Below, one piece after another: positions 45,001 through 48,000 of a stretch of 64,000 nt of DNA; position 1 is the first letter of the stretch; each line of letters opens with the position of its first letter. A program made the position numbers. The stretch is from Escherichia coli (GTDB lineage: Bacteria > Pseudomonadota > Gammaproteobacteria > Enterobacterales > Enterobacteriaceae). The stretch is taken from assembly GCF_016026235.1 (NCBI RefSeq), contig NZ_CP065613.1, one strand, 5' to 3'.

Positions 45001-48000
45001 AAAATTTCCTTGCGCAACAATACTTGCCGCCGAGTCACGGTTCGGCAATCCCTGCGCCGATCGCTCCTGATACTCTGTGGGCGTCATCCCATAATAATTT
45101 CGAAAGACGTAAATGAAATACGACACGCTGTGATATCCACAGGACACTGCGACTCGCTTAATTGAAAAGCCATGTATAACAATAAGTTGCAAAGCACGTT
45201 GCATTCTACACTCAGTAAGCAACTGTGAATATGATGTCTCTTCTTCGCGCAATTTTTTCTTTAACAGGCTTGGACTCATCAACAGCTCGCTGGCGATTCG
45301 GGCTAGTGTCCACTCATGGGCGATATTATTATTGATAACCGTACAAACTCTTGTTCGCATGTTCGGTTGCAAAACGTTCAAAAGCAGCGGTATAAAGTGC
45401 TCATCCTCAAGAAAAACAGATAACAACGCAAAGATTAATGCTCTTTTACGTAGCATTTCTGCATAGCGAAGATTCTTATTCTGCGATAGTTGCGCAACTT
45501 CCTGAAAAACAGGAATATCTCTGCTACAGTGATGAACGAGTAATGAAGAAATTTTTTTATGTGCATGAAGATTTAATGCCTCCTCCTTGAGCATCGGCAG
45601 AAATAATGAAAGCGTATCCCTTGATACTAATACAAAATTTTCAACACACTTATCTACTCGAATTTGGCTTGCATCCGCAAAAACCAGGTCACCGCCATTA
45701 AAATAGCGATATTCACCATTAACCATGGTGAGAATATATTTATGTCTTGCGTACGCAATTAGACAATTCCCATGTAATGATTGCATAGTTGACTTAATAT
45801 TACATAAACATATTACTGTTAATTAATGTAGCACGCCGCCCTCTTAAGTCAAATTGATTGATAAATAAATTTAAACGAAGCGGGAGAACAGGATGATAAT
45901 GTGTGATGTTCTACGGGCAGGATGACTGGATTTATAATACAAAAACGTGTTTAAGAACGCAGTGAAATTAATAGCAAGCAAATAATCCCTTTTCGTGACA
46001 TTAAAGGCAATCGCTACATTTAATAAACATTCATATAACATATATCTTATCAACACGATGAATAGACAGCCAATATATTATTGCGATTAATAAGCAACCG
46101 AATGCCCAGCTGTTTTTTTAAAGGCTGGGCATTCGGTTTTTACAACGTTATGTTATCAGGTGTGTTTAAAGCTGTTCTGCTGGGCAATACCCTGCAGTTT
46201 CGGGTGATCGCTGAGATATTTCAGGGAGGCTTTGTAGTCTTCCAGCAACAGTTCAGCAAAGTCCATTTCGAAGCCGCGACGACACATAATGCGCATCACC
46301 ACGATGTCGGTGGCTTCACCGCCGAGAGTGAAGGCCGGAACCTGCCAGCCGCGCAGACGCAGACGTTCAGAGAGGTCGTACAGGGTGTATCCCGGATCTT
46401 CACCATCTTTCAGTTTGAAGCAAACCGCCGGGATGCCTTCGTCCGGGCGACCCGTACAGATGAACTCATACGGCCCCAGTTTGGCGATTTCATCCGCCAG
46501 ATAAGCGGCAACCTGGTAAGAGGCGTTCTGTACTTTGGTGTAGCCTTCACGACCGAGGCGCAGGAATTCATAGTACTGTGCAATTACCTGATCCGCCGGG
46601 CGGGAGAAGTTGATGGCAAAAGTACCAATTTGACCACCCAGGTAGTCAACGTTGAACACCAGTTCCTGCGGCAGCGCTTCTTCGTCACGCCAGATAACCC
46701 AGCCGCAGCCCAGCGGAGCCAGACCGAATTTATGGCCTGAAGCACTGATCGATTTCACACGCGGCAGGCGGAAGTCCCAGACGATATCCGGGGCGACGAA
46801 CGGTGCCAGGAAGCCACCGCTGGCAGCGTCGATGTGCATGTCGATGTCGATACCGGTGTCGGCCTGGAATTTATCCAGCGCATCGTGCAGCGGTTGTGGG
46901 AACTCATAGTTACCGGTGTAGGTCACGCCGAAAGTCGGCACCACGCCGATGGTGTTTTCGTCACAGGCTTCAATCATGCGTTTCGGGTCCATAAACAACT
47001 GACCGGGGCGCATAGGGATCTCACGCAGCTCCACATCCCAGTAGCGGGCGAATTTATGCCAGCAGATTTGTACCGGACCGCACACCAGGTTTGGTTTATC
47101 CGTTGGTTTGCCTGCAGCTTCCATACGCTTGCGCCAACGCCATTTCATCGCCATCCCGCCGAGCATACAGGCCTCGGAAGAACCAATGGTGTTGGTGCCA
47201 ACGGCCTGACCATTTTTCGGCGCAGGCGCATGCCACAGATCGGCAACCATATTTACGCAACGCAGGTCGATGGCTGCGGATTGCGGATATTCTTCTTTGT
47301 CGATCCAGTTTTTATTGATCGACAAATCCATCAATTTATGGACGTTTTCGTCGTCCCAGGTCTGGCAGAAAGTGGCCAGGTTCTGACGAGCGTTGCCATC
47401 AAGATATAATTCATCATTGATAATCTGGAATGCGACATCATCGCGCATTTCGTGCAGCGGAAATCGTTTTGACTCCGCGATAGTAGAAATGGCCTTTGCG
47501 CCAAAACGTGAATCGAGTAGTTCTGAGCGGAAATCCGTTAACAGCTTCTGGTCCATTTCGAACTCCTTAAATTTATTTGAAGGCAATAAAAAGTAGGATT
47601 TATCCGCAATGGAAGCAAGGCATTACAGGCTTAATTTAAATAACAAAATCCTAAGCAGAAAAACGACTTTTTATAATATAAACATTTAACATGATAATAT
47701 TAAAAACAGACTTTATTATCGTAATAAAAATCGCCCAAACATTCCTGTTCGGGCGATCAAATTAATTATTGTTTATCCTGCATATACGGCGTGTACACCC
47801 CGTTCAGACTGTGCAGGAAAGCTACGATATCATCCACATCCTCCTGCGGCAGCTCTTTGCCTACCTGATAGCGCAGCATCAGTTTCACCGCCCCGTCCAG
47901 CGTCGGCACGTCACCGCGATGGAAGTACGGTGCCGTTAAAGCAACGTTACGTAAACCGGGTACTTTCTGACGCAATTTATCACGCTCTTCTTTAGTCACA

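Follow-up and report, generated by a model that had tools for sequence, protein, structure and literature searches.

A 20-bp sequence upstream of gadA in an Escherichia coli acid fitness island matches the GAD box of the K-12 gadA promoter

The GAD box of the gadA promoter of Escherichia coli K-12 was reportedly described by Castanie-Cornet & Foster in 2001 and by Ma et al. in 2003. It is also the subject of Castanie-Cornet et al. 2010 (PMC2887963), in which activation was found to require both RcsB/GadE and the box, by means of in vitro transcription, DNase I footprinting, gel shifts and lacZ fusions. In that study, MBP-GadE alone gave no protection of the gadA promoter in vitro, whereas RcsB together with GadE protected the region from -50 to -76, the box included, against DNase I, and the RcsB/GadE heterodimer bound the GAD box in vitro (PMC2887963). 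A G-to-C change in the box (M1) abolished both the complex and the GadE-dependent activation of gadA-lacZ, a highly conserved G that is common to the RcsB box being essential for binding, and a separate low-affinity RcsB box directly 5' of the -10 element mediates repression (PMC2887963). On a wider scale, PMC4918353 quotes TTAGGATTTTGTTATTTAAA as an earlier characterised GadE site and reports the GadE ChIP-exo motif TTARGAWWWWAAATA, which matches it, with the TTARGA... portion agreeing with the left end of the box; the same work gives the activation of gadA and gadBC by GadE as more than 50-fold (PMC4918353). Further regulators of gadA are the activators GadX and GadW and the repressor H-NS (PMC4918353; PMC2887963).

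In the window, i.e., the whole 64-kb stretch of E. coli DNA that was analysed, TTAGGATTTTGTTATTTAAA can be read directly at 47654..47635 of the minus strand, which also carries gadA; it lies 78 nt 5' of the gadA ATG (47556), inside the 209-bp gap between the terminator of ccp (yhjA) and gadA. It is the sole match in the window even at up to 3 mismatches, a tolerance at which dinucleotide-preserving shuffles give a chance expectation of 0.01 matches per window on average. The full 20 bp of the box are matched exactly, and with regard to the conserved G, both Gs of TTAGGA are present. The sequence lies upstream of, and co-oriented with, a glutamate decarboxylase gene, separated by 16 bp from TTGCTT, the -35 hexamer, and with its centre about 63 bp upstream of a start that is itself taken from K-12; moreover, GadE is encoded in the same genome. 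The sequence-only reading had claimed an exact 20-bp GAD box upstream of the gadA promoter, and both parts of this hold: the minus-strand sequence is identical to that at K-12 gadA and gadB, and its placement on the gadA strand, 16 bp from -35, is as published for K-12 (PMC2887963). That reading had further named a location outside the gadA regulatory region as the observation that would undo it; with the ccp terminator as the upstream bound of this region and the ATG at 47556 as the downstream bound, the box is found inside. The 20-bp sequence is almost certainly the GAD box that belongs to the gadA promoter of the E. coli acid fitness island; as such, it is an already known and already characterised element in its canonical place.

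Table 1. Positions of the gadA promoter elements and of associated genes in the window
Feature	Coordinates	Strand	Basis and remarks
GAD box TTAGGATTTTGTTATTTAAA	47635..47654	-	RcsB/GadE heterodimer site; exact match, K-12 identity
-35 hexamer TTGCTT, gadA promoter	47613..47618	-	Homology; identical to K-12
RcsB box core GGATAAATCC, repressing RcsB site directly 5' of -10	47596..47605	-	Identical to K-12 gadA
-10 hexamer TACTTT	47590..47595	-	Homology; identical to K-12
T-run T5	47588..47592	-	Alignment to K-12 and FDAARGOS_943 (T6)
Inferred start +1 = C	47583	-	27 nt before ATG; calibrated by published primers
Shine-Dalgarno AAGGAG, gadA	47563..47568	-	6 nt before ATG; identical to K-12
GadX/GadW-type motif AAGTCTGTTTTTAATATTAT	47694..47713	-	Predicted; 39 bp upstream of GAD box
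ccp (yhjA) intrinsic terminator	47729..47758	-	13-pair stem then T tail; directly after ccp stop at 47766
gadA, glutamate decarboxylase A, 466 aa	46156..47556	-	ORF; box-controlled gene
ccp/yhjA	47766..49163	-	ORF upstream of gadA
gadE, LuxR-family activator, 175 aa	38342..38869	+	Identical to K-12 GadE; annotated in FDAARGOS_943
GadY sRNA	44837..44950		Detected

The remaining elements of the gadA promoter can be placed around the box (Table 1), with a spacer of 17 bp separating TTGCTT from TACTTT. The start was calibrated with the primers published in PMC2887963 for the K-12 fragment -101..+24, which delimit 125 nt in K-12 and 124 nt in the window (47683..47560). Since the K-12 primer fragment measures 125 nt, +1 falls on the C that stands 27 nt ahead of the ATG, and the box occupies -72..-53. 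Relative to the start site mapped in K-12, it lies about 62 bp upstream; its centre is at -62.5 in K-12 and, in the window, at -61.5 or -62.5 according to the C that is taken as +1. In the window, the box is spaced from the -35 and -10 elements exactly as in K-12, and it is solely the interval between -10 and +1 that has lost one T. With a generic sigma-70 scan, the gadA promoter was missed and three AT-rich pseudo-promoters were obtained; as its hexamers, TTGCTT and TACTTT, are weak and depend on an activator, this missed call is not counted against the promoter. The leftmost G of the RcsB box is kept in the window and is C in K-12 gadB, matching the description in PMC2887963; the exact limits given here for the published RcsB box are those that we infer.

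Upstream of the box, AAGTCTGTTTTTAATATTAT shows 3 mismatches to AtGtcTGATtTttatattat, a motif quoted in PMC4918353, and the window contains 2 matches to this GadX/W-type motif against 0.02 expected; by this motif match, a putative GadX/W site is assigned upstream of gadA. A comparable arrangement is seen in the hdeA-hdeD intergenic region, where a degenerate GAD-box-like sequence, TTAGGAAATTTTTATTAAAT (36875-36894, plus strand), with 5 mismatches to the canonical box, is a candidate site adjoined by a GadX/W-type 20-mer with 3 mismatches (36811-36830, minus strand). Taken as putative sites, these two fit the known GadE/GadX control of hdeAB and hdeD. The other loose matches to the GAD box in the window were set aside as AT-rich noise, leaving the hdeA-hdeD site as the sole plausible extra one.

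The product of gadA matches PDB 1xey (E = 0) and differs from K-12 GadA by a single residue, G322D. The 501 nt around the box match the gadA-ccp interval in 5,413 of the 5,426 complete E. coli genomes, with both genes annotated there. In the wider window are found slp, dctR, the chu cluster, yhiD, hdeBA, hdeD, gadE, mdtEF, gadW, gadX, gadA, ccp and treF. Both GadW and GadX are full length, with 2 and 4 residues, respectively, differing from K-12, and the ES205 sRNA was detected just 3' of gadE, where K-12 annotates GadF. The genes of two further, required trans factors, rcsB and rpoS, are located outside the 64-kb window.

Across the species, a 30-mer comprising the box and 5 nt on each side matches 5,284 of the 5,426 complete genomes with 100% identity over the aligned part; given that a 30-nt query needs an exact 28-mer seed, this fraction (97.4%) is a lower bound for the exact box. 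For a 73-nt query around the box, 3,473 genomes gave 100% identity and a further 1,938 gave 95–99%, and among the variants sampled, namely MS6198, LR-28 and EC26, all the differences fall outside the box. By these counts, the GAD box is essentially invariant within the species. The gadA promoter of EC26 (NZ_CP196718.1, 2040-2100) is gadA-type in its upstream part and leader but gadB-type in a patch that starts at the 3' edge of the box and takes in the RcsB-box region. This patch, bounded on one side by the GAD box, looks like the outcome of gene conversion between the paralogous promoters of gadA and gadB. The near-invariance in 5,426 genomes and the edge of the EC26 patch both point to a strongly constrained box.

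Two rare or private changes are found together at the gadA locus. The run between -10 and +1 is T5 in the window, a 1-bp deletion relative to the T6 of K-12 and nearly all E. coli, and the exact 69-mer with T5, taken from the -35 region as far as the ATG, occurs in only 4 of 5,412 genomes (JML285, BY63, BY68 and APEC 102026). That the window might itself be one of these T5 genomes was considered and rejected: JML285, BY63 and APEC 102026 show 12–51 mismatches to it per 3 kb, against 3 per 3 kb for FDAARGOS_943, which has T6. The T5 allele is recurrent, appearing in unrelated backgrounds, and looks like homopolymer slippage or a sequencing error. As it lies downstream of -10, a start-site shift of at most 1 nt is expected, and its effect on gadA expression is probably small. 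The second change concerns residue 322 of GadA (window 46592), which is Asp here; it is Gly in K-12, in FDAARGOS_943 and in both E. coli GAD crystal sequences, and Ser or Ala, and never acidic, in other solved glutamate decarboxylases. The exact 65-mer with the G322D codon was found in none of the 5,426 genomes. It is conceivable, though a long shot, that T5 and G322D jointly point to a lineage that has retuned or weakened its gadA expression, or the activity of the enzyme, with the box perfectly conserved. Neither of them affects the GAD box finding.

Two other interpretations of the 20-mer may be weighed against this finding. In a spacer as AT-rich as that between ccp and gadA, it might be a chance match without function, and loose matches with 5–7 mismatches are indeed seen in other AT-rich parts of the window. 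Yet only about 0.01 matches are expected even at up to 3 mismatches, an identical and equally spaced box is present at the paralogous gadB promoter despite diverged flanks, and the box with its flanks is exact in 5,284 of the 5,426 genomes; the statistics and the conservation thus exclude a chance origin, to which practically no probability is assigned. It is likewise highly improbable that the 20-mer serves mainly as a site for the AraC-family regulators GadX/GadW, or for H-NS nucleation, and not as a GadE site. The AT-richness of the region and the documented roles of GadX/GadW as activators and H-NS as repressor of gadA (PMC4918353; PMC2887963) would be in keeping with such a function, but the GadX/W-type motif differs in sequence and lies 39 bp farther upstream, the RcsB/GadE footprint from -50 to -76 covers the box, in which one G-to-C substitution suffices to abolish both binding and GadE activation (PMC2887963), and the GadE ChIP-exo motif TTARGA... 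fits its left end (PMC4918353).

A doubt of a different kind relates not to what the box is but to what follows from it: the box may be intact and the output of gadA nevertheless altered by T5, by GadA G322D or by rcsB or rpoS defects outside the window, in which case the box alone would not guarantee K-12-like control. The presence of T5 in just 4 of 5,412 genomes speaks for this, as does the absence of the G322D 65-mer from 5,426 genomes at a position that is G, S or A in solved decarboxylases. We nonetheless regard it as unlikely, as the deletion is 3' of -10 and does not alter the spacing of box and hexamers, a shift by 1 nt is normally tolerated at start sites, and the recurrence of T5 in unrelated backgrounds, with T6 in the nearest relative, fits slippage or homopolymer error; furthermore, residue 322 is not invariant, and gadB, outside the window, would back up gadA.

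With the 20-mer read as the GAD box of gadA, the K-12 experiments, from which binding, activation and the start site are taken, furnish a proposed explanation. Under acid or in stationary phase, GadE would accumulate and pair with basal-level RcsB; from the box, RcsB/GadE would activate transcription of gadA, with probable read-through into gadX, and glutamate decarboxylase A would then use up protons. The window contributes sequence identity, position, conservation and an intact gadE, and it is identical, but for one missing T, to the K-12 fragment from -101 to +24 that was used for footprinting, gel shifts and reporters. From this we infer that the K-12 mechanism would operate unchanged in the window strain. 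The sequence-only reading had spoken of GadE-dependent control of gadA in this strain, in favour of which stand the exact box and a GadE identical to that of K-12; for the strain itself, such control is presumed from sequence identity with K-12. As GadE alone does not bind in vitro (PMC2887963) and the RcsB/GadE heterodimer does, control through the box would, by analogy with K-12, depend on RcsB and GadE both and not on GadE alone. Thus, the earlier wording was right but incomplete, since RcsB is also needed for binding. The strain keeps the textbook layout of glutamate-dependent acid resistance, with the GAD box, the RcsB box, the GadX/W-type site and intact gadE, gadX and gadW, and what is known from K-12 can therefore be transferred to it; by itself, the finding of the gadA GAD box has little significance beyond annotation.

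Several observations pertain to other parts of the window, for which FDAARGOS_943 is the nearest complete genome (99.92% identity over 44 kb). A chu/shu heme-uptake cluster at ~26200-35200, between dctR and yhiD, is absent from K-12 and comprises chuS, chuA, shuT, hutW, hutX, chuY, shuU and an ATPase gene; a shuA/chuA 5'-UTR thermoregulator was detected at 29285-29316 on the minus strand. In the annotation of FDAARGOS_943, shuT is frameshifted and hutW has an internal stop, and relative to that genome the window has an extra G at 30633 in the shuT region and a TGG codon at 31037 in the hutW region. Between 20001 and 64000, the two differ by 30 SNPs, 18 of which have G:C in the window where FDAARGOS_943 has A:T, a pattern that suggests either mutational bias or lower sequence quality in FDAARGOS_943. 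At 53254, the window is shorter than FDAARGOS_943 by a 4-bp (TGGC) indel, which by the annotation of that genome coincides with the 3' end of rcdB/yhjC or falls immediately behind it. The same annotation has, between kdgK and yhjJ (~60400-64000), genes coding for a DUF3142 protein, a TPR protein and a hypothetical protein, which K-12 is not known to have at this junction. An Rfam match to the AgrB antisense RNA (103 bits; 20452-20535, plus strand) adjoins the toxin gene dinQ, as annotated in FDAARGOS_943.

The closest described counterpart of the locus is the gadA locus of K-12, with the same ccp and gadA flanking genes and an identical GadE protein; its GAD box is the same 20-mer on the same strand, at 16 bp from -35, and its -35, RcsB-box and -10 sequences and 27-nt leader are as in the window. 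Over the 252 nt from the ccp stop to the gadA start codon, two positions differ from MG1655, namely a G/C change in the loop of the ccp terminator and the T missing between -10 and +1, and neither touches the box or the -35, RcsB-box or -10 elements. On a larger scale, the window differs from the K-12 acid fitness island in having the chu heme-uptake genes between dctR and yhiD. Degenerate GadE sites in the hdeA/hdeD region of the acid fitness island have the TTAGGA left half in common with the canonical box. The comparison with the K-12 gadA and gadB promoters, which had been proposed as a check, returns the same 20-mer, exact at both. The gadBC promoter of K-12, at a different locus that lies outside the window and with gadC as the downstream gene, has this identical box at an equal distance to -10 and to the ATG and shares the GATAAATCCTACTTTTTTA stretch, whereas it has diverged on both sides of the box and from the box to -35. 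In the three-way alignment, the box accordingly forms a block of identity between the paralogous gadA and gadB promoters, with both flanks diverged.
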